Positions 12,412 to 63,529 of a stretch of 64,000 bases of DNA are shown here, piece by piece. Position 1 is the stretch's first letter; every line of letters starts with the position of its first letter. A program made the position numbers and the translations under genes. Under the pieces are notes generated by a model. It searched no databases. It saw only the letters and a program-made list of their open reading frames with translations, and was not told the origin of the DNA. Source of the DNA: Paracoccaceae bacterium (GTDB lineage: Bacteria; Pseudomonadota; Alphaproteobacteria; Rhodobacterales; Rhodobacteraceae); the NCBI GenBank assembly GCA_965216135.1, contig CBDCFL010000021.1, positions 232,492-296,491 on the forward strand. Direction: 5' to 3'.

Positions 12412-12487
<76 letters not shown>

Positions 12488-20995: not shown

Positions 20996-21064
20996 AACAG
21001 TTTGCTTTTCTTGATTACCCCACGTCCCTGACATGATCTTGGATCTTGCCGTCGCTCCTCGGAA

Positions 21065-21236
21065 GGGCAGCGCCCGGACGCGGGCGGGCGCGGACACGGG
21101 TGCCGGTCCTCGCTTTATCGTGCCGCCCGCATCTTGGGTATGTTCGGGTGTGCAACGACACAGAAGCGCCCGCCCACATGGGCGGTCGGGCGCTGCCCGG
21201 CGGCACGTTCCGTGCCTTGTTCCGGGCAAGTGCGCC
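21065..21236 (+). repeat. Structured intergenic element, copy R1
   Basis: Shares ordered sequence blocks with 26427-26600 and 63315-63529. GGGCAGCGCCCG (21065-21076) pairs with CGGGCGCTGCCC (21187-21198). A 3' hairpin GGCAC/GTGCC is followed by TTGTTCCGGGC. Confidence 0.8.
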
Positions 21237-26386: not shown

Positions 26387-26426
26387 GGTAGCTCGGGGTG
26401 TCAGCTGGAACGTCGTGCGCATCACA

Positions 26427-26600
26427 GGGCAGCGCCTGACCGCGGGCGGGCGCGTCTGACCGTGACGGTCCGCGCTTTATGGTGCCGCTGCATCTTTCGT
26501 TTGAACGGCTGCGCGGGCGGTGACGATGCGCGCGACCACCCCGGGCGGTCGGGCGCTGCCCGGGCCGCTGGCGCGGCTGTTCCGGGCAAAGGGCGATGCC
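26427..26600 (+). repeat. Structured intergenic element, copy R2 (internally rearranged)
   Basis: GGGCAGCGCCTG (26427-26438) pairs with CGGGCGCTGCCC (26550-26561). A 3' hairpin GCCGC/GCGGC is followed by TGTTCCGGGC. Confidence 0.75.
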
Positions 26601-26629: not shown

Positions 26630-27789
26630 TACCAACGGCCCCCAGATTTGACTCAAGGGGATTCCCACGAGCGGCGTGATCTGATTCAGTGGCATCAAGG
26701 CAAGGGAGGCTTTGATGGCAGTAAGGATTACGCGCAAAGACAAGTCCGCAGGCGAGCTTCGCCAGGAAGCGGCGCGGTGCCGGGATGGGAAAGCGGCGCG
26801 ACGGATGTTGGCGATTGCCCTGGTTCTGGATGGGGTTGACCGCAAGACGGCGGCAGAAAACTGCGGCATGGATCGGCAGACGCTGCGGGATTGGGCCCAC
26901 CGTTACAATGCGGAGGGCGTGTCGGGCCTGTTCAACCGTCGCCCGCCGGATCCACCCTGTCTGCTGAGCGCGGCACAGAAGGAGGAGTTGGCGGAAATGG
27001 TTCGGGCGGGTCCCGACCCCGAAACCGATGGGGTTGTGCGCTGGCGGCGCATTGATCTGAAACGCAAGATCGAAGAGCGCTTCGGCGTCACCATGCATGA
27101 GCGAACTGTTGGCAAACAATTGGCAAGCCTGGGCTTTCGGCGTCTGTCGGTGCGCCCGCAGCATCCGAAATCCGACCCGGATGCACAGGAGGCTTTTAAA
27201 AAAACTTCGCCGCAGAGGTAGAAGCAGCCTTGCCGGAAACAGCCCGCAGCAAGCCCCTGGAGATATGGTTTCAGGATGAAGCGCGGGTTGGCCAGCAGGG
27301 CACGCTCACCCGTATCTGGGCCGAGCGTGGAACACGCCCCCGTGCCCCGCGCGACACCCGCTATATCTGGAGCTACATTTTCGGTGCCGTCTGCCCGGAA
27401 CGGGCTGAAGCGGCCGCTCTGATCATGCCACATGCCGACACACAGGCCATGAGCGCGCATCTCGCCGAGATCGCTAAAACCGTCGCATCGGGCGCACATG
27501 CCCTTCTCATTCTGGATGGCGCTGGCTGGCACGGTTCGGCAGAGCTGGAGGTACCCGACAACATCACCCTGCTCAAACTCCCGCCCTATTCCCCTGAACT
27601 CAACCCGATGGAAAATGTGTGGGCTTATCTGCGTGCCAACAAGCTCGCCATATCCGTCTTCGACAATTATGAGCAGATCGTCGACAGGTGTTGCGAAGCA
27701 TGGAACTTCTTTGCAAACGACAAAACCGCAATCACGTCAATCACTACCAGACAATGGGCCAAAACGGTCAACGGCTAGGGCCGTTGGTA
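26630..27789 (+). mobile_element. IS630-family insertion sequence (subtype 1)
   Basis: Terminal inverted repeats TACCAACGGCCC at both ends, TA-type flanks, one two-part transposase. Confidence 0.9.
26712..27778 (+). CDS. IS630-family DDE transposase in two frames (26712-27221 and 27230-27778), joined by a -1 shift at an A7 run
   Basis: An HTH half ends ...EAFKK at the run AAAAAAA (27198-27204). The DDE half (LEIWFQDEARVGQ...ELNPMENVW) follows in the -1 frame. The three other IS630 subtypes or copies in the window have A8 there and a single ORF. Confidence 0.85.
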
Positions 27790-41289: not shown

Positions 41290-42405
41290 CCCGCATTCCC
41301 CAGATGGATGCCCGTTTCTTCACCCGCAGAAGCGTGATATACTCGATTATACAATGAGTTAACCGGGTTGGAGCGGGAATTTGCGAGCGAACGCGACGGG
41401 TGAAGTACAAATCGTGCCTATCCGGTTGTCACCCACACCCACTACATCTAGGGTGCTCCCAGTCGCCCGAGTAAAGCTCGGCGTAAGTGGGAGCGGTGAC
41501 ATCGCCAGCGATTCCGAGCAGGGACCGGAAGGCGTTGAACGGGTAGAACCGCCTGTTGAAGCGGAAGGTGAACTCGTTGAGGTAGGCTTGGAGGTGCTGG
41601 TGGCTCACGCCGTGATGAATGCCACTCAGCCACGTCTTCAGGTTGGCGAAGACGAGATGAATGATCGGCAGATACTCCTCAGCGACCTGGGAGTTGCCTC
41701 GCTCGGCGACGGCGAGGTGTTTGTAGCCGCGCTTGGCGAGGCTGGTATAGCCGGACCAATCGTCGGTGATGACCGACGCACCCGAAGTAACGGCACCCTC
41801 GACAAAGCCGCAGAGCGATTCCGCGCTGCGGTCTGGCACGACAGCGAGTCGGACACGTCCGGCGTAGCGACCGCCCTTCCGCTTATCGAGCTTGGTTCCC
41901 GGCTTGCGCTGTCGCACTTCAACGGCGCTGGCGACAAGAAGCTTGTGGTGAACGCCCCGGCCCTTGCCGCGCGTGCGGCCGCCGACCCAGGTTTCGTCGA
42001 CTTCGACATGGTCGCAGGCCTCGCTGCCGATGCGGTCCTGATCCGGCCGAACCATACCAGCGCGGAGCTTGTGGAGGATCTGAAAGGCGGTTTCGTAACG
42101 GGAAAGCCCGACCTGGCGCTGGAACTGTGTGGCAGACATGCCGGGCGTCTGGCTGGCAACCAGATAGGCCGCCCAGAACCATACGCCCAGCGACGTATGG
42201 GAGCGCTCCATGACCGTCCCCGCCGTCAGCCCGGTGTCGCGGCGGCACTTTCGACAGCGCAGGACGCCGGGCCGGCTGGTGAAGCGGAACGGCTCTGCCG
42301 CCGTCTGGCAATGGGGGCAGACGAACCCGTCACCCCACCGCGCCTTCTCCAGGTAGGCGGCACAGGCCGCGTCATCCGGGAAAAGTCGTTGAAACTCGGA
42401 AGCGA

Positions 42406-44541
42406 GGGAGCGTTAGAAATTCCGTGTCATTTCTGTAAACTGAAGAAAAGGAATGACACATGCGAGAAGAATTTGATTTTGATGTAGCTTTGGCGGCTTT
42501 GCAAGATGGCCAGGGCCTTACAGGCAAGGACGGTATTCTGACGCCGTTAGTCAAGCAACTGACCGAAGCTGCATTACAGGCTGAACTGGAGGCGCATTTA
42601 AAGGCCGACAAGTCCAGCAACCGCAGGAACGGAGCTGGCCGTAAGACCATCAAATCCACGTCTGGAAGTTTCGAACTGGCAACGCCACGAGATCGGGCTG
42701 GATCGTTTGAGCCGCAACTGGTGAAAAAACACCAGACCCACATGAGCGACGAGATCGAATGCAAGATTATTTCAATGTTCGGGCTTGGAATGAGCTATCT
42801 GGACATCGCTGGACACATCTCGGAAATCTACGGTCTGGATGTTTCAAACGCCACGATCAGCGCCGTCACTGATAAATTGATCCCTGAAATCAAGCTCTGG
42901 CAGCAGCGGCCCCTGGACAGCCATCACCCGTTTGTTTGGCTTGATGCTATTCACTACAAGGTTAAGCAAGACGGGCGCTACGCAGCCAAAGCGGTTTACA
43001 CGGTTCTGGGGCTTAATCTTGAGGGCAGGAAGGAAATTCTTGGCCTGTATCTATCTGAAACCGAAGGTGCAAACTTCTGGCTCTCGGTGCTGACGGACCT
43101 GAACAATCGCGGCCTGCAAGACATCCTGATTGCTTGTGTCGATGGCCTCACGGGCTTTCCAGAGGCGATCAACGCGATCTTTCCCCAGACCGAAGTCCAG
43201 CTTTGTGTCATCCACCAAATCCGCAATTCTCTGAAATATGTAGCCAGCAAAAACCAGAAGGAATTCATGGCTGATCTAAAGCCGGTTTATAAGGCTGAAA
43301 CTGTGAAAGCGGCTGAAATCGCGTTGGATGCGTTAGAAGAAAAATGGGGAACTAATACCAACGGCATCAATTTCTGACTCTGTGGGGATTCCCAAATCGG
43401 TTTTGATCTGATTCAAGGTTGGCAAAGGAGGATCGCCATGCCAGCCAGTGTTCCGCTTCGTCGCGACTTTGATGCCCGACCTTCGTAAACTCGCCAGCCG
43501 TTGCAAGGATGCCCGGCAGAGCCGCCGTCTGTTGTCTCTTGCGGCGGTCTACGATGGCATGCGCCGTGGAGAGGCCGCAAGGATCGGTGGGATGGATCGC
43601 CAAACCCTGCGGGACTGGGTTCACCGGTTCAACGAAGAGGGACGGATGGCCTCACCAACCGCAAGGGCGCGGGCCGGACGCGCTACCTGAGCGATGTCCA
43701 GATGAAAGAACTTGGCGAGATTGTCGAGACCGGCCCCGATCCGGCGGTGGACTGTGTGGCAGACATCCGAGCGCGGGCAGACTGCTTGGCGAACTGGGGC
43801 CCATATCAGCGCCCGCCCGCAGCATCCCAGGCAGGATAAGCGGATCATCGAGGCGTTTAAAAAAAACTTCGCCGACACGCTCCAGGTGCATATAGCTGAC
43901 CTGCCAGCGGGAACGCCGGTGGAGATCTGGTTCCAGGACGAAGCACGCCTTGGCCAGAAGAATGGCCTGACGCGCCTGTGGGCGAGAAAGGGCACGCGCC
44001 CCCGCCAGCCGGCCGATCAGCGCTATCACAACGCCTATCTGTTCGGCGCCATCTGTCCGGCTCACGGCAAGGGGGCGGCGCTATGGGAGCGCTCCATGAC
44101 CGTCCCCGCCGTCAGCCCGGTGTCGCGGCGGCACTTTCGACAGCGCAAGACGCCGGGCCGGCTGGTGAAGCGGAACGAAAATGGGCTCTGCCGCTGGTAT
44201 AAATACCCAATCGTCATTAAATCATGGCGTAAAAAATGGCCCAATTTGTCGGTCTACTTCAAATATCCAGCTGACATTCGGCGGGTAATTTACACCACCA
44301 ACGCAATCGAGGCCGTGCATCGCCAGTTCCGAAAACTGACCAAAACCAAGGGCGCGTTTCCCAATGAAAACAGTTTGCTCAAACTGCTGTATATGGGGAT
44401 CCAGAACGCTTCAAAAAAATGGACCATGCCATTGCAAAACTGGAATTTGACTTTGTCCCAACTTTCCATCTATTTTGAGGGAAGGTTAGACGATGTCTTG
44501 GACATCTAGACTAACCCCGTGACACGGAATTCTGAACACCC
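42406..44541 (+). mobile_element. IS256-family element, copy 1, interrupted by an IS630 relic
   Basis: Ends are GGGAGCGTTAGAAATTCCGTGTCA and, reverse-complemented, GGGTGTTCAGAATTCCGTGTCA. The direct repeat TCGGAAGCGA occurs at 42396-42405 and 44542-44551. The transposase spans 42460-43355 plus 44200-44509 (…EEKWGTN / KYPIVIKSWRKKW…). Confidence 0.9.
43356..44199 (+). mobile_element. Degraded IS630-family copy C (same subtype as 49559-50720)
   Basis: Both IS termini are present. Several 1-5-nt deletions. One 77-nt segment and the whole 3' half are replaced by IS1595-derived sequence. Confidence 0.85.
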
Positions 44542-44668
44542 TCGGAAGCGACCGCGGAAACGAAAGGTCTTCGCGCTGCGGAACATCCATCCCCGCTTCG
44601 TCCGCCTCCCGAGCCACTCGACGCCACACCCTACATATAGTGGGTGTGGGTGACAACCGGATAGGCAC

Positions 44669-44833
44669 GGTTTGTTCTACGACGCAGATCTCACGGATCG
44701 CGTCAATACGCGCCATCCCTTGCCCAACCAGAACCTCAACCTGGCGCAGCTTGGTAACAATCTCTTCGGGTTTGTGCCTTTTGATTCCCATCTTTGATCC
44801 TCCATTTCCTAACTATAGGGGCGGACCAATTCA
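44669..44833 (-). mobile_element. Left end and first ~41 codons of a second IS3-family element
   Basis: Minus-strand IR TGAATTGGTCCGCCCC..., then MGIKRHKPEEIVTKLRQVEVLVGQGMARIDAIREICVVEQT, cut by IS1595. Confidence 0.7.
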
Positions 44834-44844
44834 TTGGGGGAGGA

Positions 44845-45054
44845 TCACGCGTCGACAGCGTGCTCGTCTATGTCAAAACACCATGATACTTTGTTGCCGT
44901 CTCGGTCCAGATATTCTGGCCAGGTGACAACGAACTCCGCATTACGCTGTTCCAGCTTTGCCAGACGCGCCTCGGAGCGCGGGATAGGCGGCGCGCGGCA
45001 GTCTGCTCGCTGATCTCCGCCGAGTCCGAGTTCTTCGTCCTGACAAGCGTCCAC
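44845..45054 (-). CDS. Small hypothetical protein (69 codons, GTG start), last gene of the cargo operon
   Basis: ORF on the operon strand with a protein-like C-terminal half (EARLAKLEQRNAEFVVTWPEYLDRDGNKVSWCFDIDEH). A competing frame (44868-45086) starts at an ATG overlapping the upstream stop. I cannot decide between them by eye. Confidence 0.3.
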   Translation of the reverse strand: MDACQDEELGLGGDQRADCRAPPIPRSEARLAKLEQRNAEFVVTWPEYLDRDGNKVSWCFDIDEHAVDA

Positions 45055-45085
45055 GAAACCGGGTGCCGGTCGGAAGAATCAGTCA

Positions 45086-46102
45086 TCAACCATAGTGATC
45101 TTCTTCTTCATCGACCGTAAGTTCGGCTCGGGTCGTGACGTCGCCGGCCACATCGATGGTGTTTTGATAAGCAACGTATGTGAACCCAGAAACGTGGAGC
45201 TTGTACGTGCCTTTGGTCACCTTGACCTTGGCCACCCCATTCTCGTCGGTGAGAGCCCTGTACGGATGCAGAAGGACGTGCACGCCCTTGATCGGGGTGT
45301 GCTTTTGGGCGTCGAACGCCTCGACCGTCACTTCGTAGTCCGGGGCGCCGACCACCTTGACCCCGAAGGGGAACGCGCCGGCAGCGTGCGGGAACTCCGA
45401 GTCCGACTGGGCCTCCCAGGCACCGGACTTCAGCTCCCACTTGTAGTCGCCGACGGCACCGGGAGCCTCCACTTCCACCTCGGCGTAGTACAGCGCCGTC
45501 GTGCCCGGCCACGGCTCGTCGACGAGGGTCGTGGTGGCGACCTCGGCACCCTCGTGGTCGACGACGGTCAGCGCCTTGCCGGCGAGCTTGCAGCCCTGGG
45601 AGCATTTCAAGCCGACCTTCAGCTTGAAGCGCTCGCCGGCGACGATCGCCGACGCCATGCCCCAGACGTTCAAGCGCGCGGCGTGGGCGTTGACCGTGAA
45701 GGAGAACTTGGCGGCGGTCTCCTCGTGCGAGACGCCGTTCTTTTCAACCGCTGGCAGCACCGCCCGATAGGTGTGCTCGCCCGGCTTGCCCGGCACCTTC
45801 ACGACGATGTCGGTGGCGTAGTCGTACTCCTCGTGCGCGTCTTCGTCGTCATCGTCGTCATCGTCGGCCTCGTCGTGCCGGTCCTCGTCCTCCTCGGCGT
45901 CCTCCGGTTCTGCCAGCTCGGCGGTCGCGACCTCGTTGTCGTACTCGTCCCGGATCGAGACGCTTTGCCCCGTCAGGTCGTCGCCGAACGGGCAGGCGAC
46001 CCAGACCGTCAGGGTGAGCTCGGCACCGGCATCGACCTCGCCGGGCGAGACATCGACCGTGCACTTGCGCTGACCGTGCGCCGCGACTTCGTCTGCTGCC
46101 AT
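45086..46102 (-). CDS. Hypothetical acidic multi-domain protein (Ig-like repeats, 30-residue D/E run, C-terminal CarboxypepD_reg-like beta-sandwich)
   Basis: GGAGGA lies 9 nt upstream of the ATG at 46102. The ORF-track GTG at 46111 is too close to the SD. No signal peptide. The C-terminus YEVTVEAFDAQKHTPIKGVHVLL...DENGVAKVKVTKGTYKLHVSGFTY resembles carboxypeptidase-regulatory-like folds. Confidence 0.75.
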   Translation of the reverse strand: MAADEVAAHGQRKCTVDVSPGEVDAGAELTLTVWVACPFGDDLTGQSVSIRDEYDNEVATAELAEPEDAEEDEDRHDEADDDDDDDEDAHEEYDYATDIVVKVPGKPGEHTYRAVLPAVEKNGVSHEETAAKFSFTVNAHAARLNVWGMASAIVAGERFKLKVGLKCSQGCKLAGKALTVVDHEGAEVATTTLVDEPWPGTTALYYAEVEVEAPGAVGDYKWELKSGAWEAQSDSEFPHAAGAFPFGVKVVGAPDYEVTVEAFDAQKHTPIKGVHVLLHPYRALTDENGVAKVKVTKGTYKLHVSGFTYVAYQNTIDVAGDVTTRAELTVDEEEDHYG

Positions 46103-46270
46103 GTTGTTCACTCCTCCGAAACTCCGAACGCGAGATTATGCGCCACCGGCCCGCCGAAAAAGGGGTGACAGAGCGCCAACCGAGGCCTGACGCGGCCCGG
46201 CTGGGGCGCTGCCCTCGGGACATCGGAACGCCCGGGCTAGGTGACCCGGGCGTTCCGCTTCTCGGTGGGC

Positions 46271-46302
46271 AATACCGGGGGGGGGCCGGCCCCCCCGGTA
46301 TT
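46271..46302. repeat. G/C-homopolymer palindrome AATACC-G9-CCGG-C7-GGTATT
   Basis: Read directly from the sequence. It lies in the 227-nt spacer between the flavoprotein stop (46330) and the next gene's start (46102). Confidence 0.9.
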
Positions 46303-46329
46303 CTCGGTCGGTTTCTTAGGCCCGCCCGT

Positions 46330-48402
46330 TCACACCGCGTTGGTGCCGGCCATGTAGCCGTGGACGGCCGCGCGCCCAATGCCGTGCATCATGCCACCTC
46401 CACTTGCCTCGCCACCTGCATAGAGGCCCGGGACGACCTGGCCTTCGGTGTCCACGACCTGGGCCTTGCCGTTGATCCTGAGGCCCCCATAGGAATCGCC
46501 AACGTACATCGGCGCTATAAGCGCGTAGAAGGGCGGCGTGTCGATCCTGTGCATGACCGGCTTCTCGAAGTCGTCGTCCATGCCCGCGTCGGCAAACCCG
46601 TTGAACTTGGCCACCGTTTCTTCAAGATACTTGAGAGGCATAGTCTGATATGGGTTCCCAGTGGCTAGTCTAGCCAGTTCGGCCAGCGTATCGGCCTGGA
46701 AGAAATATCCGTCGGGCGGATCGGCGATATAGGGATACCGCAACTCCCACCCTCCCCGCTCCACCGCGGCCGCGTCGAAGATCGCCCACACCGGTCCCGA
46801 CGAGTAGGTTGGTGCCCGCGAACCCTCGTTCATCGCCAAGGCCGCATCCGAAGCAGAGGTCCTCGAATAAGCCGCCTTGATGTGCTCGACACTCGCGTTG
46901 CGCCAATCCAGCGGGACCCACGGGTCGCGGGTGTTGGATTGCCCCCCCCCCCCGGGGCCGGAATACCTGGCAGCGGTGGTACCATCATCTGGAATAGCCA
47001 TCTCGTTGTAGAACCTCTGCCCGACCTGGTTGACCGTGATCACATTTTCCCATCCGCTGTTGCCGATACTGACACCCCAGGACCGTCCGAACAGGAATCC
47101 GGGGTGTCCGGGGAAGATCTGCGTCGTCGCCTGGGTCGCCAGTATGTTTCTTATTCCGGGAGTAGCGTCGTAAAAGTAGTTATGCATCATGCCGGCGAGG
47201 TTCGCGCCGATTCTCATGCCGGCGATGATCCCGCTGCCGTCCATGCTGAGAGGTCCGACATCGTTGTTACCCGAATACCCGATCGACGGCTCTGTCATTC
47301 GCGGATCGAACATCGTGCGGAGTTGCACATTGCCGTGCATGCCGCCGGTGCCGATGATGACGGCCCGTCTTGCCCGGATGTAGATCGTGTCGGCGCGCTC
47401 GTCGACATTGCCGTTCTGCCAGAAGCTTTCCAGACGCTCGCCGGTCTCGGGGTTGAACCGCGGCGTGTAGCTCGCCCGGACGCCCACAACCCTGCCGGAC
47501 AAAGGCTGCTCGCGGATGATCTCGTCCAGATGCCGGTTGACCATGAACTGGACGCCCTTCTCGCGGGCGCTGAACTCGAGCGGCCGGGCGATCGTGAAGC
47601 CGCCGAAAACCCATCCGGGGGCACCTACCTCTTCCGCCGGGTTGCCGGGGATCCTACGCATCGGATTGAACGGCGAGTGGCGCTCGGCAGCGGGGTCGCC
47701 CCGGTCCTCCGGCGACAGGGTTCCGGCCCTGATGTCGGTGACGTCGGCGAGCTTCATGATGGCGCGCGCGGACCGGCCGCGGCTCATGCCGCCGCCGCTA
47801 TGGGTGCCATTGATTCGCGCATACCGGACATAGTTGTCCATCGTGAATTGCCTGGTTGCGGCGGCGTTATCCGCCCAGCCACGATGCAGTCCTCGGTCAT
47901 TGTGTCGGTAGTAAGGGGTACCCGCATTGGTTACGACCGACCAGTCGGTCATGTCTTGGAAGAGCCGGTCGGGGTCATCTTCCAGGTCTTCGGGCGGGAC
48001 CAGCGGTTCGGTCAGCCCCATGCCGTCGGGGTCGGCGGCCATGCGGTCGCGTTCCTGGATGGCGTCCCCGCCGCCGTAGGACGACCAGCCGCCGCTGTGC
48101 AAGAGCTTCCCGCCGACGTCGAAGTTCGCGTCGATCACAAGCACTGAGGCTCCGAGATCGCGTGCCCTGATAGCGGCAGGCAGCCCCGTACACCCCGACC
48201 CACAGACAACAATATCCACTTCGTAGTCCCAGCGAATGTCAGCAACGGTCGACTGCGCCTGGGCCTTGCCCGGCGCCGACAGGACGGCCGCCCCGGCACC
48301 AGCGGCAGCTCCTGCCTTGACGAAATCTCGCCTACTGAGGGCTGCTGGGGTGCCTTCGTCCTGAGGCGCTCGTCTTTTCCGGCTCTTGTGCTTCTTCGTC
48401 AT
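46330..48402 (-). CDS. Tat-exported FAD-dependent oxidoreductase (FAD_binding_2 / fumarate-reductase-KstD-like flavoprotein)
   Basis: Twin-arginine signal SRRDFVKAGAAAGAGAAVL...AQA. Dinucleotide fold DIVVCGSGCTGLPAAIRARDLGASVLVID. C-terminal VPGLYAGGEASGG. Strong SD GGAGGA. Confidence 0.9.
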   Translation of the reverse strand: MTKKHKSRKRRAPQDEGTPAALSRRDFVKAGAAAGAGAAVLSAPGKAQAQSTVADIRWDYEVDIVVCGSGCTGLPAAIRARDLGASVLVIDANFDVGGKLLHSGGWSSYGGGDAIQERDRMAADPDGMGLTEPLVPPEDLEDDPDRLFQDMTDWSVVTNAGTPYYRHNDRGLHRGWADNAAATRQFTMDNYVRYARINGTHSGGGMSRGRSARAIMKLADVTDIRAGTLSPEDRGDPAAERHSPFNPMRRIPGNPAEEVGAPGWVFGGFTIARPLEFSAREKGVQFMVNRHLDEIIREQPLSGRVVGVRASYTPRFNPETGERLESFWQNGNVDERADTIYIRARRAVIIGTGGMHGNVQLRTMFDPRMTEPSIGYSGNNDVGPLSMDGSGIIAGMRIGANLAGMMHNYFYDATPGIRNILATQATTQIFPGHPGFLFGRSWGVSIGNSGWENVITVNQVGQRFYNEMAIPDDGTTAARYSGPGGGGQSNTRDPWVPLDWRNASVEHIKAAYSRTSASDAALAMNEGSRAPTYSSGPVWAIFDAAAVERGGWELRYPYIADPPDGYFFQADTLAELARLATGNPYQTMPLKYLEETVAKFNGFADAGMDDDFEKPVMHRIDTPPFYALIAPMYVGDSYGGLRINGKAQVVDTEGQVVPGLYAGGEASGGGMMHGIGRAAVHGYMAGTNAV
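46942..46953 (-). repeat. G12 (coding-strand) homopolymer inside the flavoprotein gene
   Basis: Twelve consecutive C on the plus strand, encoding GGGG in ...YSGPGGGGQSN.... Confidence 0.95.
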
Positions 48403-48945
48403 GTCCGTTCCTCCGTAGTATCTCCGCCGTTAAGTGTTGCTGGCCGATGAACGGGTACTTGGCAACGAATCCCGAACCGGCTTCCGGTTCAGAGAGACCT
48501 TCGCGACCGCTGGCCAACGTGGCTCGCACGGAAACGGCATCACCGTGCCAACCGATTCTGTAAGTCTTTTAGCGGGTTACTCTCAGTTTTACCGCTGATA
48601 GAAACCGCAGGTCTTCAGGTTAACATGTGATTTAATATTCCGCAAGTGTCGGTAACAGACAATCGCGCTCCAATCTGCGCGGGCACCTTGGACGGTCCCC
48701 GGTAGTCTAACCGGCCGCCGGATCGTGCGAGCGGAAACATATCGGACCGCCACCCAAGTCCGCTCCCCGGGAAGCGAGCGCAAGACCACCGATGTCAGCC
48801 GTTTTCCGAATCGCGAGAGCTGAAGCGCAGAAAAAGCGTACCTGTCAGTGAGATCCGCGGGGCACCTTTCCCGGCCGCCATCCCCGCGCGCGAATTGGCG
48901 CCCGGTTTTGGCGCGTGGGAAGGCGGTCTGCCATGACCGGCGCGG

Positions 48946-49413
48946 CTAGTTCTGGACGATCTCCCCCAGCAAATAGTCGACCAGAGCCTCGATCTCGTCG
49001 GCGTCAAATGCTCCGGACACTACCGTCCCTGCCGGCGCCGGGCCGAGCTCGAGCTCGTAGCAGGCGGTCTCTGTGTAGGCCCCGGCAAGCCATGCCGGCA
49101 TTGGCGTCTCTGGCCGCCCGCAGCTGATCAATTCTATCAGTTGGTCGCGGTCCAATTCGGTTGACCGTACACTCGGGCCGGTCGCCTGCTCGCTACCGGC
49201 ACCGCCGTGGCCGCCGTGTCCCGAACGGCCATGGCAACCGGCGCATCCTCCCCCATGCCAAAACTGTTTGCCCACTTCCGCCGCATCCTGCGCGAACGCC
49301 GGCGCAGGCATGGCCAGGAAGGCGACGACCGCCAGCCCTACTATCCCCGCGCGTCGGGTCTTATGCGATGTACCTTGCCGATTTCGTCCGATTTCGTTCG
49401 TTTCCGAGTTCAT
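48946..49413 (-). CDS. Class I c-type cytochrome, secreted
   Basis: Sec signal ...AMPAPAFAQD, heme motif CAGCH and a distal PMPAW Met. Start taken at ATG 49413. Confidence 0.85.
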   Translation of the reverse strand: MNSETNEIGRNRQGTSHKTRRAGIVGLAVVAFLAMPAPAFAQDAAEVGKQFWHGGGCAGCHGRSGHGGHGGAGSEQATGPSVRSTELDRDQLIELISCGRPETPMPAWLAGAYTETACYELELGPAPAGTVVSGAFDADEIEALVDYLLGEIVQN

Positions 49414-49558
49414 ATCAAACAACCCTTTTCAAACCACCCTTTTTGGCGAAAGACCGAGGGGCCGGCGAGAGGCGAAACCAGCCACAATCGCCCCTTCTGT
49501 ATCAGAAGCGGCATGAGACAGCCATGAAAATCACGAGGAAGAAATGCGAAATCCGTTA

Positions 49559-50720
49559 TACCAACGGCATCAATTTCTGACTCTGTGGGGATTCCCAAAT
49601 CGGTTTTGATCTGATTCAAGGTTGGCAAAGGAGGATCGCCATGCCAGCCAGTGTTCCGCTTCGTCGCGACTTTGATGCCCGCCACCTTCGTAAACTCGCC
49701 AGCCGTTGCAAGGATGCCCGGCAGAGCCGCCGTCTGTTGTCTCTTGCGGCGGTCTACGATGGCATGCGCCGTGGAGAGGCCGCAAGGATCGGTGGGATGG
49801 ATCGCCAAACCCTGCGGGACTGGGTTCACCGGTTCAACGAAGAGGGACCGGATGGCCTCACCAACCGCAAGGGCGCGGGCCGGACGCGCTACCTGAGCGA
49901 TGTCCAGATGAAAGAACTTGGCGAGATTGTCGAGACCGGCCCCGATCCGGCGGTGGACGGGGTTGTCCGCTGGCGGCGGATCGACCTGAAGCGGGTGATC
50001 GAGGCGCGCTTTGGCGTCATCTATTCCGAGCGCGGGATATCCAGACTGCTTGGCGAACTGGGCTTTGCCCATATCAGCGCCCGCCCGCAGCATCCCAGGC
50101 AGGATAAGCGGATCATCGAGGCGTTTAAAAAAAACTTCGCCGACACGCTCCAGGTGCATATAGCTGACCTGCCAGCGGGAACGCCGGTGGAGATCTGGTT
50201 CCAGGACGAAGCACGCCTTGGCCAGAAGAATGGCCTGACGCGCCTGTGGGCGAGAAAGGGCACGCGCCCCCGCCAGCCGGCCGATCAGCGCTATCACAAC
50301 GCCTATCTGTTCGGCGCCATCTGTCCGGCTCACGGCAAGGGGGCGGCGCTCATGCTGCCTTGGGCGGACGCGCAAGCCATGCAGATGCATCTCGACGAGA
50401 TCAGCCGCCACGTCGCCCGAAAGGCCCATGCGGTTGTGCTGATGGATCGGGCCGGATGGCACACCACCGGCAAACTCAAAGTCCCGAAGAACCTCACCAT
50501 CATCCTGCTGCCATCGCGCGCTCCGGAACTGAACCCGGTGGAAAATATCTGGCAGTACTTGCGCGCCAATTGGCTCTCCAACCGCGTGTTCGAAGACTAC
50601 AATGCCATCGTCGATGCTGGATGCGAAGCTTGGAACAAGCTCATCGCACAGCCCGAAACCATCACATCAATCGGAATGCGAAAATGGGCCCATATCGGTC
50701 AATGTTAAATGCCGCTGGTA
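49559..50720 (+). mobile_element. IS630-family element, subtype 2, copy A (1162 bp)
   Basis: IRs are TACCAACGGCATCAATTTCTGAC and, reverse-complemented, TACCAGCGGCATTTAACATTGAC. Same length as copy B, and the encoded transposases are identical. Confidence 0.93.
49641..50708 (+). CDS. IS630-family transposase (355 aa, intact)
   Basis: HTH half, then EIWFQDEARLGQ...MDRAGWH...ELNPVENIW DDE half in a single frame (A8 run). Confidence 0.93.
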   Translation: MPASVPLRRDFDARHLRKLASRCKDARQSRRLLSLAAVYDGMRRGEAARIGGMDRQTLRDWVHRFNEEGPDGLTNRKGAGRTRYLSDVQMKELGEIVETGPDPAVDGVVRWRRIDLKRVIEARFGVIYSERGISRLLGELGFAHISARPQHPRQDKRIIEAFKKNFADTLQVHIADLPAGTPVEIWFQDEARLGQKNGLTRLWARKGTRPRQPADQRYHNAYLFGAICPAHGKGAALMLPWADAQAMQMHLDEISRHVARKAHAVVLMDRAGWHTTGKLKVPKNLTIILLPSRAPELNPVENIWQYLRANWLSNRVFEDYNAIVDAGCEAWNKLIAQPETITSIGMRKWAHIGQC

Positions 50721-50999
50721 TTACCCAAGATCAGCAGCCTGCCGGGCTCGGTGCACATCGAGTGGAAGCGATGCGGGCGGTCCAACTGCCGCTGCCGAGC
50801 TTGAAGGCTTCATGGGCCCGACTACGCGCGCCACTGGCGTGAGGGAGGGCGGCAGAAGAAAGCCTATGTTCCGTCTGGCGATGTGCACGCCATTATACTG
50901 GTTGTCGAACTGAGGCGCGCGCTCGTTCCGGCGTGTTCCGAGATGAGAAGGCGCGTCGAGGGCTCCCTTTCCGGACAACCTCTGAGGGTCGAACGATGA
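50721..50999 (+). pseudogene. 5'-truncated small Cys-rich gene with in-frame TGA (DUF6788-like; family name from memory, unverified)
   Basis: ...SLPGSVHIEWKRCGRSNCRCRA*RLHGPDYARHWREGGRQKKAYVPSGDV.... Begins at the IS630 boundary. TGA at 50802-50804. Its final TGA overlaps the next ATG. Confidence 0.45.
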
Positions 51000-51646
51000 G
51001 CACTGCAGACAAAGCACGGGGCGCCATCGCCGAGGGATCGGTTGGAGACCATCCGCCGCCCGCGCCTTCACCTGATGAGGCTCAGCGCCGTGCCGACGAG
51101 CACGAGCGTCGGGTCCGTGACGAGATGGAGAGCCAATTTGCGCGGCTGAAGGATGAAGGCAAGGCACTGTTTGGCATGGTCGAGGGACGCCCCGGTGTGA
51201 AATCGCCACCCGAGTGGGCCAAGCGTCTCGACCAGGCCGGCGACGACATCGGCAACGGTCGCTTCGTCGTCCGTTATCTCGGCACCGAACGGTACCTCGA
51301 CGCGGAAACCGTGACGGTGCTGGTCACTCTGCGTCAGAACCTGATCGCCGAGTTGCCTCGACCGTCGACCGCCGACCTGATGATGATCGATGCGGCGATC
51401 GTCGCCTATTACAACTTCCTCCGCGTCCAGGGCTGGATCGGCAACTCGGCCCTTGTCTTCGAAGGTGAATTGTTCGGTCAGAAGCCCCTCAGCGAGATCC
51501 ACGGCGACATGGTGGGCAGCCGATTGAGGGAGCAATTGGAGCGTCTCAGCGAGGTCATCCTGCCGCTTCAGGACCGCTGCCACCGGATGATGGTGCGCAG
51601 CCTGGGACAATTGGCGAGGACGGGCGAACGGAGGCCAGCTGCATGA
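50996..51646 (+). CDS. Hypothetical protein (216 aa)
   Basis: ATGA-coupled to the preceding remnant, with a GAGGG SD-like sequence. No motif recognised. Confidence 0.5.
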   Translation: MSTADKARGAIAEGSVGDHPPPAPSPDEAQRRADEHERRVRDEMESQFARLKDEGKALFGMVEGRPGVKSPPEWAKRLDQAGDDIGNGRFVVRYLGTERYLDAETVTVLVTLRQNLIAELPRPSTADLMMIDAAIVAYYNFLRVQGWIGNSALVFEGELFGQKPLSEIHGDMVGSRLREQLERLSEVILPLQDRCHRMMVRSLGQLARTGERRPAA

Positions 51647-51787
51647 AGCGAGGCACCGGGCCTGGGGGACGTGGGTGCGGCGAGAGTCACTGACGACCGT
51701 CGGCTGGATATCCAACCCGGGGCGCAAACCGTTGTCGGTCACGTGGTTTTGACAGAGTAGCGCCAACCAAAAGAAAGGAGCGTACCC

Positions 51788-51988
51788 ATGAACCGGATCT
51801 ACGCGGCTGCATGTAGCCTCGACAACGAGGTCATTCGACTCGTTTATGTTGCCGAAGACCAGCCGGATTGGGCGCGCAAGGAGCGCCAGGAACTCGAACG
51901 GGAGTTCCGTCGGAACCCACCCGTGCTTTGGCGGTGGGTTCAACCGATCGCCGCAACACACTCTGCGAACATCTCTGCTGGCGTTTGA
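51788..51988 (+). CDS. Hypothetical small protein (66 aa)
   Basis: Good SD (AAAGGAG 7 nt upstream). The 3' end overlaps the IS30 fragment, so it may be truncated or chimeric. Confidence 0.3.
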
Positions 51989-52073
51989 TATTGCAAGGTC
52001 TTGCGTGGCCGCTCGTTCAGCTGACGTGCAATGGCGCTCAGCTTTGCCTGGGAGTGGAGAGCTAAGTCCGTTC
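51939..52073 (-). mobile_element. IS30-family transposase, C-terminal 44 codons only
   Basis: The minus strand reads [44 protein letters not shown], cut by IS1595 copy 2. Confidence 0.75.
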
Positions 52074-53185
52074 CGTGCCTATCCGGTTGTCACCCACACC
52101 CACTATATGTAGGGTGTGGCGTCGAGTGGCTCGGGAGGCGGACGAAGCGGGGATGGATGTTCCGCAGCGCGAAGACCTTTCGTTTCCGCGGTCGCTTCCC
52201 GAGTTTCAACGACTTTTCCCGGATGACGCGGCCTGTGCCGCCTACCTGGAGAAGGCGCGGTGGGGTGACGGGTTCGTCTGCCCCCATTGCCAGACGGCGG
52301 CAGAGCCGTTCCGCTTCACCAGCCGGCCCGGCGTCCTGCGCTGTCGAAAGTGCCGCCGCGACACCGGGCTGACGGCGGGGACGGTCATGGAGCGCTCCCA
52401 TACGTCGCTGGGCGTATGGTTCTGGGCGGCCTATCTGGTTGCCAGCCAGACGCCCGGCATGTCTGCCACACAGTTCCAGCGCCAGGTCGGGCTTTCCCGT
52501 TACGAAACCGCCTTTCAGATCCTCCACAAGCTCCGCGCTGGTATGGTTCGGCCGGATCAGGACCGCATCGGCAGCGAGGCCTGCGACCATGTCGAAGTCG
52601 ACGAAACCTGGGTCGGCGGCCGCACGCGCGGCAAGGGCCGGGGCGTTCACCACAAGCTTCTTGTCGCCAGCGCCGTTGAAGTGCGACAGCGCAAGCCGGG
52701 AACCAAGCTCGATAAGCGGAAGGGCGGTCGCTACGCCGGACGTGTCCGACTCGCTGTCGTGCCAGACCGCAGCGCGGAATCGCTCTGCGGCTTTGTCGAG
52801 GGCGCCGTTACTTCGGGTGCGTCGGTCATCACCGACGATTGGTCCGGCTATACCAGCCTCGCCAAGCGCGGCTACAAACACCTCGCCGTCGCCGAGCGAG
52901 GCAACTCCCAGGTCGCTGAGGAGTATCTGCCGATCATTCATCTCGTCTTCGCCAACCTGAAGACGTGGCTGAGTGGCATTCATCACGGCGTGAGCCACCA
53001 GCACCTCCAAGCCTACCTCAACGAGTTCACCTTCCGCTTCAACAGGCGGTTCTGCCCGTTCAACGCCTTCCGGTCCCTGCTCGGAATCGCTGGCGATGTC
53101 ACCGCTCCCACTTACGCCGAGCTTTACTCGGGCGACTGGGAGCACCCTAGATGTAGTGGGTGTGGGTGACAACCGGATAGGCACG
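52074..53185 (+). mobile_element. IS1595-family element, copy 2 (1112 bp, intact)
   Basis: Same ~32-bp inverted repeats as copy 1. Its flanks belong to two different ISs (IS30 and IS1380) and there is no TSD. Confidence 0.92.
52153..53169 (+). CDS. IS1595-family (ISXO2-like) transposase
   Basis: N-terminal zinc ribbon (CPHC...CRKC), then VEVDETWVGG...ITDDWSGY...NLKTWLSGIHHGVS. Start placed at MDVPQRE. Confidence 0.9.
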   Translation: MDVPQREDLSFPRSLPEFQRLFPDDAACAAYLEKARWGDGFVCPHCQTAAEPFRFTSRPGVLRCRKCRRDTGLTAGTVMERSHTSLGVWFWAAYLVASQTPGMSATQFQRQVGLSRYETAFQILHKLRAGMVRPDQDRIGSEACDHVEVDETWVGGRTRGKGRGVHHKLLVASAVEVRQRKPGTKLDKRKGGRYAGRVRLAVVPDRSAESLCGFVEGAVTSGASVITDDWSGYTSLAKRGYKHLAVAERGNSQVAEEYLPIIHLVFANLKTWLSGIHHGVSHQHLQAYLNEFTFRFNRRFCPFNAFRSLLGIAGDVTAPTYAELYSGDWEHPRCSGCG

Positions 53186-54535
53186 GTACAAACAAGCCCT
53201 CTTCGGTTCCAATTCGACTGCTCGGTCAAGGTCGCGTTCCGTGGATCGTCGATCAGTTCGGACGGCGGGCTATTGCTCCACCGCGAGTTGGACGACGCCC
53301 TCGGGCTGACGGACATGGCGGCGGGGCTGATCACCGATCCGCGCACTGGCCGGAATGGCCGCCACAATCTCGCCGGCCTTCTGCGCCAATCGGTTTTCCC
53401 ACGCCTTGCCGGCTATGAGGACGTCAACGACGCCGACCGACTGTGCCGTGATCCGGTGATGCGCCAACTCATCGGTGGACGTGCGGTGAAGCGGGGTGCG
53501 GCGTCGGCCAGCGCCATGGGTCGGTTCGAGACGAAGATGCTGACCCGACCGGAGAACCTCGCCGCCCTCGCTGATCTGCCCGGCCGCTGGATCGACGCGG
53601 TGCATGACCGGAGGCCGCCGAAGAGCATCACGCTGGATATGGACAGCTCCGAGAGCCCTGTGCATGGCGATCAGGAAGGTGCAATGTGGAACGGGCATTT
53701 CCAATCCAAGTGCCTGCACCCACTGTTCGTGTTCAACCAGTTCGGCGATCTGGAGCGATGTGCGCTGCGTCCCGGCAATGTCCACAGCGCCGATGGCCGG
53801 GAGGATGTGCTGCGCCCGGTGCTGGCAAGATATTCGAGCGACACGCGACCCTCGATCACCCGGCGCTATTTCCGAGGTGACGCCGCCTTTGCCATCCCTA
53901 CGCTGTTCGATCTCCTGGAGGCCGAGGGCTGGGGTTACGCCATCCGGATCAAGGGCAACAGCAAGCTCTATGAGCGGATTTCCCGGCTGCTGCGGCGCAG
54001 GCCGGGTCGGCCGTCGCACACGGTGATCCGCACCTGCACCAGCTTCCAGTATCAGGCGGGGAGCTGGGTGAAGCCGCGCCGGGTGGTGTCCAGGGTCGAG
54101 TTCCATCCGGGCGGGTTGTTCCCGCGCGTGGGCTTCATCGTCACCAATCGCAGCCTGCCCAATGAGCGGGTGCCGGCGTTCTACAACGGCTGGGGCACAG
54201 CCGGGCAGCACATCAAGGAAGGCAAGTACGCGCTGAAGTGGACGCGGCTTTCCTGCATGCGCTTTGCCGCCAACGCCGTCCGGCTACAGCTTCATGCCCT
54301 CGCCTACAATCCGGCGAACTTCCTGCGCACGCCAGCGACGCCCAGCGAGATCGAGACATGGTCACTGACCTCTTTGCGCGAACGGCTGATCAAGACCGGT
54401 ACGCGGCTGGGGCGCCATGGCCGCTACGCCATCTTCCAGATGGCCGAGGCGGCACTGCCGCGGCAAGTGTTCGCCGGGATTCCTGGCCTGATCAACGGGC
54501 TGCGCGATCCGCCTGCCGCAACAGGGTGCACATGA
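53186..54535 (+). pseudogene. IS1380-family transposase lacking its own start codon
   Basis: SSDGGLLLHRELDD...GYEDVNDADRL...WNGHFQSKCLHPLFVFNQFGDLERC...GTAGQHIKEGK. The ORF-track start at 53096 lies inside IS1595. Confidence 0.85.
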
Positions 54536-54757
54536 CCAGAAACCCGCCCAGATCGGCTAAATCCAACGCTGGTGACAGGAAAGGTGTGTCCGAAAACGCG
54601 TCGAGAGACGCCTTAAGCGGTCGGATCGGCCTGTTTGGTCGTGCTATCCGGCCGGCACGCAGCACCACACGCGGATCGGAGGCAGAAATCGCCTGGAAAG
54701 TCGCCTTCGGTTGCTTTAGCCTCACGGGAGGCAAGCCAAATGGAGAATGCCGGGTTA
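53186..54757 (+). mobile_element. IS1380-family element, nearly full length but 5'-truncated by IS1595
   Basis: The left IR and first codons are missing. The right end (…TGGAGAATGCCGGGTTA) aligns with 57544-57560 of the other IS1380. Confidence 0.85.
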
Positions 54758-55632
54758 TGCTTTCCACCTCTCTGAAATCAGTTTTACATCACGCTAGATA
54801 CTTCCCTTTGTGGTCGGCGCTTACTGTTTTTCGCTGGCGCACCTTTGATTTGCGGTCCCGTGGTTTGGGCACAACTTTTGGAACGGTCATGCGTTGGTTT
54901 CCGCCTGCAAGAAGCCGATTTGACCGCGAAGCAAAACGAGTTTTTCCCAATATGAAGCGCAGCGCGCGCGGGAAGCTTGGTCAAAATATGGGCAGGCATA
55001 TGGGGCGAACACTTTTTGAGATATACCACGATGCTGAATTTCAAACGCAACACCACAAATTCAGAAGCTCTGGCCCCGGCCTTGCCGCCCTGAAAGAGGC
55101 GAACGCAGCTGGTAAAGGGGCGATTATTGTTTCCGGCCATTTTGGGCAATGGGAAGCAGTTCGCGCCGTGATCAAATTGCACGGGATGGAAAGCGGAGGC
55201 GTCTATCGCCCCCATAAAAATCGCCATTACGCACGCCGAATTCTTGCTGGTATCGAAGCGGGGGGAAAACCGATTTTGGCAACCGGCCACGTTGGTACTA
55301 GGGCCCTTGTGCGTCATCTGCGGGATGGCGGCATTATTTCTATCTTGTTAGATGAAAAATATCCGGAAGGTGTACGGATACCGTTTCTTGGTCTTGACGC
55401 CCTCACATCTCTCTCCCCTGCCCAGCTTGCACTCAAATACGATCTGCCCATGATCCCTGCTTATGGTATTCGCATTGATGACGGGAACGCATTTCGAGTG
55501 GAATTCGAAGCCCCAATCCCCCACACCGACAGCATCACCATGACCCGTGCCTTTAATGACAGTCTATCTGCGCGGATCCTAGCAGACCCAGAACAGTGGT
55601 ATTGGATGCTGAGACGTTGGGACGGTGTTTGA
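54757..55632 (+). CDS. Lipid A biosynthesis lauroyl/LpxL-family acyltransferase
   Basis: IVSGHFGQWE (HX4E-type acyltransferase motif) and ILLDEKYPEGVRIPFLG. A sampled 60-nt line (54781-54840) is 50% G+C. The A of the ATG is the last base assigned to IS1380. Confidence 0.75.
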   Translation: MLSTSLKSVLHHARYFPLWSALTVFRWRTFDLRSRGLGTTFGTVMRWFPPARSRFDREAKRVFPNMKRSARGKLGQNMGRHMGRTLFEIYHDAEFQTQHHKFRSSGPGLAALKEANAAGKGAIIVSGHFGQWEAVRAVIKLHGMESGGVYRPHKNRHYARRILAGIEAGGKPILATGHVGTRALVRHLRDGGIISILLDEKYPEGVRIPFLGLDALTSLSPAQLALKYDLPMIPAYGIRIDDGNAFRVEFEAPIPHTDSITMTRAFNDSLSARILADPEQWYWMLRRWDGV

Positions 55633-55792
55633 AGGTCGGCATAGCCCTGCGATTTCAACCGGTCGACGCAACACTTTAACGTATGCGTCCGGCGTCGCCG
55701 ACCTTGCGGATTTTCTGACACCTGAGAGTCTTACGCTTCGATAGCGGGCGATGGTGCCCACTATCGATGGTGGACACTATCGGGGATCATCG

Positions 55793-56152
55793 ATGGCGAG
55801 GAAGCGGCGGCGTCGGATCTGGGAAGACGATGAGAAGCGCCGGATCGTGGCGCAGACGCGGGTGCCGGGGGTCTCGGTTTCTCAGGTTGCGCGTCGTTAT
55901 GACGTGAACGCCAACATGGTTTTCAAATGGCTTCGCGATCCACGGTTCATGCCGTCGGCAGATGATCTTCCGTCGTTCTTGCCGGTCGAGGTTCTGCCCG
56001 ACGCTTCACCTGGCGCAGCCATGGCGAATGGCGATGCCGTCGCCTCGGACAGCAGGATCGAGATCACATTGTCCAACGGTCTCAGTCTCTGCGTGAGTGG
56101 CGGTTTTGATCCTGACGCGGTGTCGCGCCTTGTGCGCGGCCTGGCGACATGA
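55793..56152 (+). CDS. IS66-family accessory protein TnpA
   Basis: [40 protein letters not shown]. Confidence 0.85.
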
Positions 56153-56496
56153 TCCCGGTTCCGGCATCGACGAAGATCTGGCTTGCGGGCGGTGTGACGG
56201 ACATGCGCAAGGGGTTTGTCGGCTTGTCATCTCTGGCTGAGGCGGTTCTTCGCCAAGACCCGTATTCCGGTCATCTGTTTGTTTTCCGGGGTCGTCGCGG
56301 CGATCTGATCAAGGTGATCTGGTGGGACGGCCAAGGCGCGTGCCTGTTCTCCAAGCGGTTAGAGCGCGGACGGTTCGTCTGGCCGTCGATTGCGGCTGGC
56401 AAGCTGACGATCAGCCCGGCGCAGCTGGCGATGTTGCTGGAAGGCATAGACTGGCGAGCGCCGCTGCGAACATGGCGCCCACTGACGGCTGGATAG
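56149..56496 (+). CDS. IS66-family TnpB
   Basis: [18 protein letters not shown]...[37 protein letters not shown]. The tnpC gene that should follow is absent. Confidence 0.9.
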
Positions 56497-56563
56497 AGTG
56501 AGAAAGCCAACAATAAAGGGCTGATTGAGCGCCTTCGGGATTCCCTTGATCGGCGTCATCGGC

Positions 56564-57560: not shown

Positions 57561-57682
57561 AGTGCATTCCGAATATTTTTGCTTCATTTTATAGTATATA
57601 AACGAAATTACTGCAAGAAAAACAAACAGTTATCCCGTATCTGCAAATCTAAACTCCTGTATTCGCCGCAAGTTATGGCTTA

Positions 57683-60389: not shown

Positions 60390-60533
60390 TAACGGCGTCA
60401 GAATACCGTCCTTGCCTGTAAGGCCCTGGCCATCTTGCAAAGCCGCCAAAGCTACATCAAAATCAAATTCTTCTCGCATGTGTCATTCCTTTTCTTCAGT
60501 TTACAGAAATGACACGGAATTTCTAACGCTCCC

Positions 60534-63298: not shown

Positions 63299-63314
63299 TG
63301 CCCGCAACTCAGGC

Positions 63315-63529
63315 GGGCAGCGCCCAGCCGCGGGTGGGCGCTGCCGCGGTTGAAGTCTGCACTTTATCGTGCCACCACATCTTGCGCCCGTATGGGTGTG
63401 TAACGGTGACGTAGCGCCCGCCCGTCGCACCGGAGGTGCGCCACTAAACATTGGCATGCCTCCGGAATGACAGGGAGGTCGGGCGCTGCCCGGCGGCGCT
63501 TCGCGCCTTGTTCCGGGCTTGTACGCGCC
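63315..63529 (+). repeat. Structured intergenic element, copy R3
   Basis: GGGCAGCGCCCA (63315-63326) pairs with CGGGCGCTGCCC (63480-63491). A 3' hairpin GGCGC/GCGCC is followed by TTGTTCCGGGC. Confidence 0.8.

Follow-up and report, generated by a model that had tools for sequence, protein, structure and literature searches.

A probable family of REP- and MITE-like palindromic repeats dispersed between the genes of Rhodobacterales

Examination of three structured elements (R1, R2 and R3) carried by a 64-kb window, i.e. the whole stretch of DNA that was analysed, revealed that they form a true family, as the original prediction had supposed, and that this repeat family is large and Rhodobacterales-wide. 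We consider it probable that they belong to a group of palindromic repeats scattered between genes that had not been catalogued before, of the REP/BIME/REPIN- and MITE-like kind. On present evidence, a new regulatory RNA is not revealed. A literature search, which was not exhaustive, returned no paper with the core sequence and none describing this repeat family.

The extent of the family was assessed in a collection containing one genome per species, using as an exact pattern the 3' module GGGCGCTGCCCGG-N10-22-GTTCCGGGC; such a scan favours intact 3' modules, and each genome was sampled in part. At least 105 stretches match the pattern, nearly all of them from Rhodobacterales. The repeat is carried by at least 20 genera of this order, marine as well as freshwater, and is also present on plasmids and chromids. 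Genera among the matches listed include Frigidibacter, Gemmobacter, Pseudosulfitobacter, Sulfitobacter, Thioclava, Leisingera, Roseovarius, Defluviimonas, Tabrizicola, Marivivens, Pseudodonghicola, Pseudooceanicola, Brevirhabdus and Thalassovita. Outside the order, the few pattern matches, actinobacterial among others, lack a full-length match with nhmmer or the covariance model and are chance fits to a GC-rich pattern. A search of the collected loci with nhmmer gave 79 full-length copies of ~160-170 nt together with ~14 short forms, and the covariance model, run on 0.7 Mb of loci, gave ~90 sense-strand matches, including copies that lie outside the search pattern. Frigidibacter albus alone harbors at least 15 copies in the collection scan. 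In a plasmid collection, 147 plasmid or chromid records match, their hosts being Pseudosulfitobacter, Leisingera, Sulfitobacter, Paroceanicella, Ruegeria and Tritonibacter, and no annotated feature lies beneath the match in any of these records (0/147). Carriage by phages was rejected, a single match being found among viral contigs. The source of the window is a roseobacter, sequenced as long-read metagenome contigs, whose nearest TpiA relatives are 73% identical.

The consensus of the element reads (C-R-A-C-A-G-A) GGGCAGCGCCCGACCGC(C) GGGTGGGCGC ... GCGCTTTATGG ... AAGCGCCCGCCC GAGG GGGCGGTCGGGCGCTGCCC GG CGGCGC-TTCG-GCGCC TTGTTCCGGGC AAGG. A semi-conserved lead-in, C-R-A-C-A-G-A, is situated 5' of palindrome module A (GGGCAGCGCCCGACCGC(C)-GGGTGGGCGC), which is separated by a spacer of ~75 nt, ~48% conserved except for the CTTTATGG box, from palindrome module B, itself module A inverted (GCGCCCGCCC-GAGG-GGGCGGTCGGGCGCTGCCC); the palindrome module is also written GGGCAGCGCCCGACCGCC. 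Module B is followed by GG, the covarying hairpin P3, the tail TTGTTCCGGGC and then a purine-rich flank. Because the first 28 nt are the reverse complement of GCGCCCGCCC...CTGCCC, the element can be described as a ~30-nt imperfect palindrome present twice, the second time inverted. In the fold of one strand, helices P1 and P2 make up a long hairpin, which is accompanied by a small 3' hairpin. Two irregularities of the palindrome are conserved: a T.G wobble in module A and a TC bulge in module B. Across genera, mean pairwise identity falls from 83% in the 5' arm to 48% in the spacer, and the 84% found in the 3' part is inflated by the exact match required there by the search pattern; the tail is also conserved in copies outside that pattern, with variants such as TTGATTCCGGGC. 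Mini copies, which consist of a single palindrome, the hairpin and the tail, look like deletions between two direct AGCGCCCG repeats. The loop of module B takes an extra hairpin in R3, in loci L061, L100 and L063 and in the long Frigidibacter copies, and the insert of R3 resembles that of L063 (Pseudosulfitobacter). In Gemmobacter MAGs (L068:7566-7590 and L026:3018-3040), conservation runs ~20 nt beyond the tail as GGGGGAAGGGCTCACACGG, which appears to be a lineage-specific 3' extension.

Compensatory changes support the long hairpin as well as the short one. The fold that was scored contains 17 pairs in P1, 10 in P2 and 5 in P3. Across the family, 95.5% of its cells are paired, against 38-48% when the partners are slid by 1-3 columns. 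Double-sided changes affect 8 pairs and 49 cells, and neither this cell count nor the covariation score was reached in any of 500 shuffles (0/500), so the structure-preserving stem changes originally claimed from the three copies are borne out across many genomes. Double changes occur at 5 of the 17 pairs of P1 and at 3 of the 5 pairs of P3, for which six different stems were found; P2 shows none in the family alignment, with 94.7% of its cells paired. Examples of compensation are an A-U to U-A exchange in all Frigidibacter copies, CAGGGCCCGG with CCGGGCCCTG in L086, and CCCTCCCT with AGGGAGGG in L073. Two other foldings gained no support from covariation: a pair of small hairpins is compatible with the alignment (95% paired) yet barely covaries, and a possible closing helix P0, formed by ACA of the lead-in and UGU of the tail, is 75% paired without covariation. 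On the + strand, G.U pairs outnumber A.C pairs in P1 (45:12) and in P2 (63:15, 51 of the 63 G.U pairs coming from one fixed position). Sense copies (14:7) do not differ from antisense copies (15:10) in the G.U:A.C ratio; this asymmetry is therefore intrinsic to the element and not a product of host transcription.

The three copies of the window were all recovered at the places and on the + strand where they had been reported. R1 starts at 21065 (GGGCAG) and its tail GTTCCGGGC ends at 21227; the corresponding positions are 26427 and 26587 for R2 and 63315 and 63518 for R3. A covariance model built from 63 copies and applied to the 64-kb window with filters off returned exactly R1 (123 bits, E 1e-32), R2 (104 bits, E 3e-27) and R3 (65 bits, E 1e-16), with no fourth copy; since R1 and R2 are among the 63 model-building copies, only the score of R3 is independent. 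The exact 17-mer GGTCGGGCGCTGCCCGG occurs 3 times in the window, on the + strand, where ~1 match is expected even at 3 mismatches, and a partial reverse complement of it is found at the 5' end of R2 and R3. Whole-length alignment showed all the blocks said to be common to the three copies, in the order described. Starting points predicted at 70, 40 and 16 nt after the upstream stop codons were measured at 68, 39 and 16 nt. According to Pfam, the gene order is tpiA, R1, purF for the first copy; an M23/LysM peptidase gene (nlpD-like), R2 and IS630-type ORFs for the second; and an msrQ-like gene, R3 and a convergent mscS-type gene for the third, the stop codon of the latter (63530-63532) lying 11 nt from the end of the R3 tail.

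Each copy folds into a long closing helix and a small 3' hairpin, with fold z-scores of -2.7, -2.3 and -5.1 for R1, R2 and R3. The closing helix proved longer than initially described, up to 17 bp, with two mismatches in P1 of R1. The nested helix attributed to R1 and R3 is present in both, and in R2 it contains two mismatched pairs. The short hairpin placed after the closing helix does vary in sequence among R1-R3 while keeping its complementarity. R2 had been regarded as internally rearranged; the covariance-model alignment indicates instead that it is divergent in the middle. The IS630 proposed downstream of R2 is supported by Pfam, which detects IS630-type HTH and DDE_3 domains in two ORFs (26712-27221 and 27230-27778), probably one frameshifted transposase; a terminal inverted repeat of this IS630 was looked for near R2 and not found.

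Table 1. Coordinates of the repeat copies of the window, of their parts and of an IS110-family element inserted in a plasmid copy (positions of the window unless a locus is given)
Feature	Position	Strand	Partner, neighbours and basis
R1 full copy	21058..21231	+	tpiA (stop 20995) to purF (start ~21326); model positions 1-175; Pfam neighbours
R1 P1 5' strand GGGCAGCGCCCGGACGC, in palindrome module A	21065..21081	+	partner 21182-21198
R1 P2 5' strand GGGCGGGCGC (inner helix)	21082..21091	+	partner 21166-21175
R1 CTTTATCGTGCC box, in variable spacer	21113..21124	+	alignment columns 63-67 nearly invariant
R1 P2 3' strand GCGCCCGCCC, opens palindrome module B	21166..21175	+	
R1 P1 3' strand GCGGTCGGGCGCTGCCC	21182..21198	+	
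R1 short hairpin P3, GGCAC / GTGCC	21202..21216	+	
R1 tail TTGTTCCGGGC	21217..21227	+	
R2 full copy	26421..26591	+	39 nt past nlpD-like stop; IS630-type ORFs downstream; covariance model and Pfam
R2 P3 GCCGC / GCGGC	26564-26568 / 26573-26577	+	
R2 tail	26578-26587	+	
R3 full copy with extra hairpin	63309..63522	+	16 nt past msrQ-like stop; covariance model and Pfam
R3 extra hairpin ~49 nt, in loop of palindrome module B	63424..63472	+	
IS110-family element in tail of copy	L114:19968-21120		Pseudosulfitobacter sp. DSM 107133 pDSM107133_a, NZ_CP085155.1

Other features of the window and of related assemblies were recorded. The other assemblies of the same species all keep R1 and R3, and in one of them (L107:3812, ENA ERZ25068966) 10 nt of the R1 5' arm, GGCAGCGCCC (window 21066-21075), are absent, through strain variation or through an error in the long-read assembly. 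An IS5-type transposase gene (DDE_Tnp_1_5, 61595-62596) is situated directly upstream of msrQ, at the place expected for msrP, and a different IS (DUF772/DDE_Tnp_1) occupies the region upstream of msrQ in another same-species assembly (L119:838-2226); as the IS differs between two assemblies of one species, this site attracts IS insertions. The region 41400-60500 contains a cluster of repeated segments, with 100%-identical stretches at 43355-44082 and 49558-50350 and inverted 43-45-nt ends at 41413/44627 and 52074/53143, which look like several IS copies. A tRNA gene (12415-12487, - strand) is the sole Rfam match in the window.

Comparison of copies within and between genomes gives some indication of how the family is maintained. 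Identity is 82% between copies of the same genome versus 67% between genomes. Two copies in one genome reach a maximum identity of 93%, with no identical pair under partial sampling of each genome, and recent mobility is not supported for this reason. Some sites are common to different hosts: one is found in two Frigidibacter species (L042 and L104), another in two different Rhodobacterales MAGs (L029 and L081), and a third, with orthologous genes on both flanks, in Frigidibacter (L044) and Gemmobacter (L093). At the sites shared across genera, the copies are 61-63% identical to each other, and the Frigidibacter copies are 86-88% identical to their genome-mates. Such low same-site and high genome-mate identities point to turnover or homogenisation within genomes. 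Site occupancy also differs: HLUCCO07 carries a copy after tgt and none after tpiA, and the window shows the opposite. The chromid of DSM 107133 has a copy between ALDH and CoA-transferase genes which is absent from plasmid P5 of Pseudosulfitobacter pseudonitzschiae, a comparison blurred by a RelBE insertion. RelE/RelB pairs are present in P. pseudonitzschiae plasmids P6 (L116:1500-2061) and P5 (L117:1120-1681), in the intergenic regions that hold the repeat in the DSM 107133 chromid; P6 keeps a copy beside the pair and P5 is without one. When the flanks of every copy were paired across all loci, no clean filled/empty site was obtained, and no target-site duplication or footprint was found, the flanks CRACAGA and AAGG not being duplicates of each other; like the retention of R1 and R3 in the other same-species assemblies, this speaks against recent mobility.

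The search for an enzyme able to move the repeat was negative where it was made. A tblastn search with E. coli RayT gave nothing in 0.8 Mb of loci plus the window, nor on Rhodobacterales plasmids, and RAYTs are reported to be rare in Alphaproteobacteria (PMC5581495). The sole gene seen with two flanking head-to-head copies is that of ribosomal protein L25 (L078:3534-4818); tandem copy pairs occur in L086, L071 and L008. In plasmid pDSM107133_a, an IS110-family element is inserted exactly within the tail of a copy (junction ...GTGCCTTGT / IS / TTCCGGGCTTTGG), in agreement with the fact that REPs are known to be targeted by IS elements (PMC1525189). Another, shorter transposase gene of the IS110 family on the same locus (L114, 32264-33037; 774 nt vs 945 nt) has no adjoining copy. 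The tail of the repeat may be a preferred, bridge-RNA-addressable IS110 target, for which GCCTTGTTCCGGGC is a candidate sequence.

This precise insertion is one of the observations that would be expected if the repeat were a non-autonomous transposable-element derivative or attachment site, either a palindrome-associated remnant of IS200/IS605, of which a TnpB guide-RNA scaffold would be one form, or a landing site kept in many copies together with IS110-family elements; it is nevertheless a single insertion among ~100 copies, and by eye the left end of the IS110 has no obvious similarity to the repeat. The conserved irregularities of the palindrome resemble the hairpins recognised by Y1 transposases, as in the IS608 and REP-RAYT structures, and the conserved 5' lead-in without duplication recalls IS200/IS605; however, TnpA and TnpB are absent from the most frequent families of 144 neighbouring proteins, none of the copies seen has a gene between its halves, and 3'-half-only copies likewise occur without any ORF between halves. 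We regard such an origin as unlikely. There is a comparably slim chance that the family is a long-lived, strand-specific alphaproteobacterial replicator working with a non-RAYT enzyme, or an active structured RNA or ssDNA, the tail being a programmed IS110 landing site.

Several properties of the repeat could also suggest multicopy, independently transcribed structured RNAs (trans-acting sRNA, catalytic or guide RNA) that have spread as small genes: P1 and P3 covary, the wobble pairs are strand-specific independently of the orientation of host genes, the arms, the CTTTATGG box and the tail are conserved order-wide, and an insert of variable length is accepted in one loop only, as in many structured RNAs. 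Against these stand an upstream conservation of ~7 nt only, the absence of a sigma-70-like promoter in or before R1 and R3 in a promoter scan, the persistence of mini forms lacking half of the element, and copies pressed between stop codons on both sides with no room for a promoter. Rfam gave no match either: with Rfam 15, the repeat has none at gathering score in the window, R1 has none at E up to 10 and ten loci (~13 copies) have none at E up to 0.1, in accordance with the early statement that no known RNA family could be recognised. RNA genes of this type thus appear quite improbable.

The genomic context of the copies was examined with gene calls from a codon model that is frame-specific and had two Rhodobacterales replicons (84 annotated CDS) as its training set; in cross-tests this model recovered 42/44 and 39/40 annotated genes and, in the window, 5/5 Pfam-validated genes. 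Among the 98 copies placed in this way, only one overlaps a predicted gene. Both neighbours were called for 77 copies: 31 of these lie between convergent genes, 20 between co-directional genes in sense, 21 between co-directional genes in antisense and 5 between divergent genes. Gene 3' ends are faced by 117 of 174 element sides, often at 2-30 nt from the stop codon. The copies are enriched at gene ends and avoid divergent promoter regions, so that the location "just 3' of genes" given in the original prediction is correct loosely, and fails as a stricter rule. The orientation of the upstream gene, shared by R1, R2 and R3 as was then noted, does not extend to the family, and the counts of 20 sense and 21 antisense copies make the three-for-three orientation in the window a small-sample accident. 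Pfam confirms ten genes flanking antisense copies, as exemplified by pgk and a DeoC-type aldolase gene in L009 and by ABC ATPase and permease genes in L014, each pair separated by an antisense copy. Four distinct plasmid sites with annotation are flanked by convergent genes, and a fifth, discounting an IS, is antisense between co-directional genes. The 144 neighbouring proteins match 186 Pfam families. No family stands out by enrichment, and the most frequent ones include no transposase; the neighbours are unrelated housekeeping genes, without a partner gene or regulon. The + strand of the element falls on the locally C-rich strand in 62 of 98 copies (binomial p ~0.01, confounded by gene orientation and repeated loci), a placement that may hint at a replication-strand bias.

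A cis-acting RNA of the upstream transcript, read in sense as a 3'-UTR structure, a 3'-UTR-derived sRNA or a unidirectional terminator, would agree with the sense position of R1-R3 at 16-68 nt past a stop codon, with the same arrangement at the four distinct annotated plasmid sites, with the resemblance of P3 and the following UUGUU to a weak terminator and with the excess of G.U over A.C pairs on the + strand, but it is largely refuted by the orientation counts (21 antisense versus 20 sense between co-directional genes, with Pfam-confirmed neighbours for the antisense copies), and as the G.U:A.C ratio is independent of orientation, the terminator scan of the + strand of R1 and R3 is empty and the neighbouring genes have no common function, we consider it highly improbable.

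Other candidates were examined and rejected. The inverted repeat stops ~30 nt short of the 3' boundary and no target duplication is present, which does not correspond to a TIR-type MITE. As for intrinsic terminators, the scan was empty on the + strand, and on the - strand it gave a single weak site, in R1, with nothing in R3; the T runs are short, both in the tail (UUGUU) and on the reverse strand (UUCU/UUUU). An integron attC site was discarded on the grounds that the tail GTTCCGG misfits GTTRRRY and that the neighbours are core housekeeping genes (tpiA, purF, pgk, L25); the commonest of the 186 neighbour families include no integrase. Resemblances to group II intron domain V, a tRNA T-arm and an IHF site were rejected by eye.

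Among the candidates initially listed, "MITE-like DNA" came closest to the outcome, and a 3'-UTR RNA or a terminator of the upstream gene were not upheld (20 versus 21); the first description was correct at the sequence level and over-interpreted on orientation. Under the reading that we favour, a dispersed intergenic palindromic repeat, the family would be maintained as a population inside the genome, by occasional copying events or by gene conversion. By analogy, the natural candidate for this activity would be a single-strand-specific enzyme of the HUH/Y1 type, none of which was found in the loci, the window or the plasmids. The GC-rich hairpin is very stable and, whichever side it is transcribed from, probably constitutes an orientation-independent barrier at transcript 3' ends, which could stabilise the transcript, pause the polymerase or cause weak termination. 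In E. coli, REPs act as such barriers within and between operons. Some observations run counter to this reading. Across genera the arms are 83% conserved versus 48% for the spacer and some sites are common to several genera, a pattern that would also fit host-level selection on each copy; and the element is asymmetric, P3 and the tail being outside the inverted repeat, a layout foreign to classical REPINs and to TIR-type MITEs.

These findings provide an order-wide and well-defined repeat family for roseobacters and their relatives, in which the literature search found none. Its recognition can be used for masking false ORFs and false sRNA calls, for explaining contig breaks in metagenome bins and for strain typing. 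The repeat also allows one to ask whether populations of the REP kind can persist where no RAYT is recognisable, and offers natural target sites for IS110-family (bridge-RNA) recombinases.

Known systems share parts of this architecture. The subterminal hairpins of IS200/IS605 elements and their miniature derivatives likewise show imperfect hairpins whose irregularities are conserved, features specific to one strand, a short 5' sequence under conservation and no duplication; in contrast to them, neither an associated tnpA/tnpB nor an IS with matching ends was found for the repeat among the neighbours of the collected loci. RIME and Sm-repeats of Rhizobiales, Correia elements of Neisseria and ERIC/IRU are mosaic or MITE-like structured repeats, transcribed with their neighbours and with reported effects on termination or RNA stability. 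They too are intergenic elements of 100-200 nt with long inverted repeats and with insertion sites varying between relatives, a likeness of architecture, with none expected in sequence; the present repeat differs in having neither terminal inverted repeats at its true ends nor a target duplication.

Closer relatives in form are the CGTC-tagged REPs reported to be typical of alpha-Proteobacteria, which are palindromic, intergenic and mostly arranged as head-to-head dimers, with 8-9-bp stems opening with A/T pairs, 4-5-nt loops, a terminal CGTC and a CCA tail (Di Nocera et al. 2013, PMC3733652). The Rhodobacterales repeat is likewise palindromic and intergenic, whereas its stems are GC-rich and of 10-17 bp, its tail is different, and CGTC is confined to the Frigidibacter subfamily, where an A-to-T change creates it incidentally. 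The REP/BIME of Enterobacteria and the REPINs of Pseudomonas resemble it in most respects: they are extragenic with many copies per genome (97/98 copies free of genes here), consist of a ~30-nt GC-rich imperfect palindrome present as an inverted doublet able to form two small hairpins or one long hairpin, preserve this long hairpin through compensatory changes, occur as singlets beside doublets, lie at gene 3' ends and inside operons in either orientation, serve as IS targets and have copies that cluster by genome. In contrast to these systems, the Rhodobacterales repeat lacks a GTAG (or CGTC) tag in its consensus, where the lead-in C-R-A-C-A-G-A is found, has no RAYT in the loci, window or plasmids and no identical copies (maximum 93%), possesses an additional asymmetric 3' module composed of the P3 hairpin and TTGTTCCGGGC, and is conserved over a whole order, not one genus.
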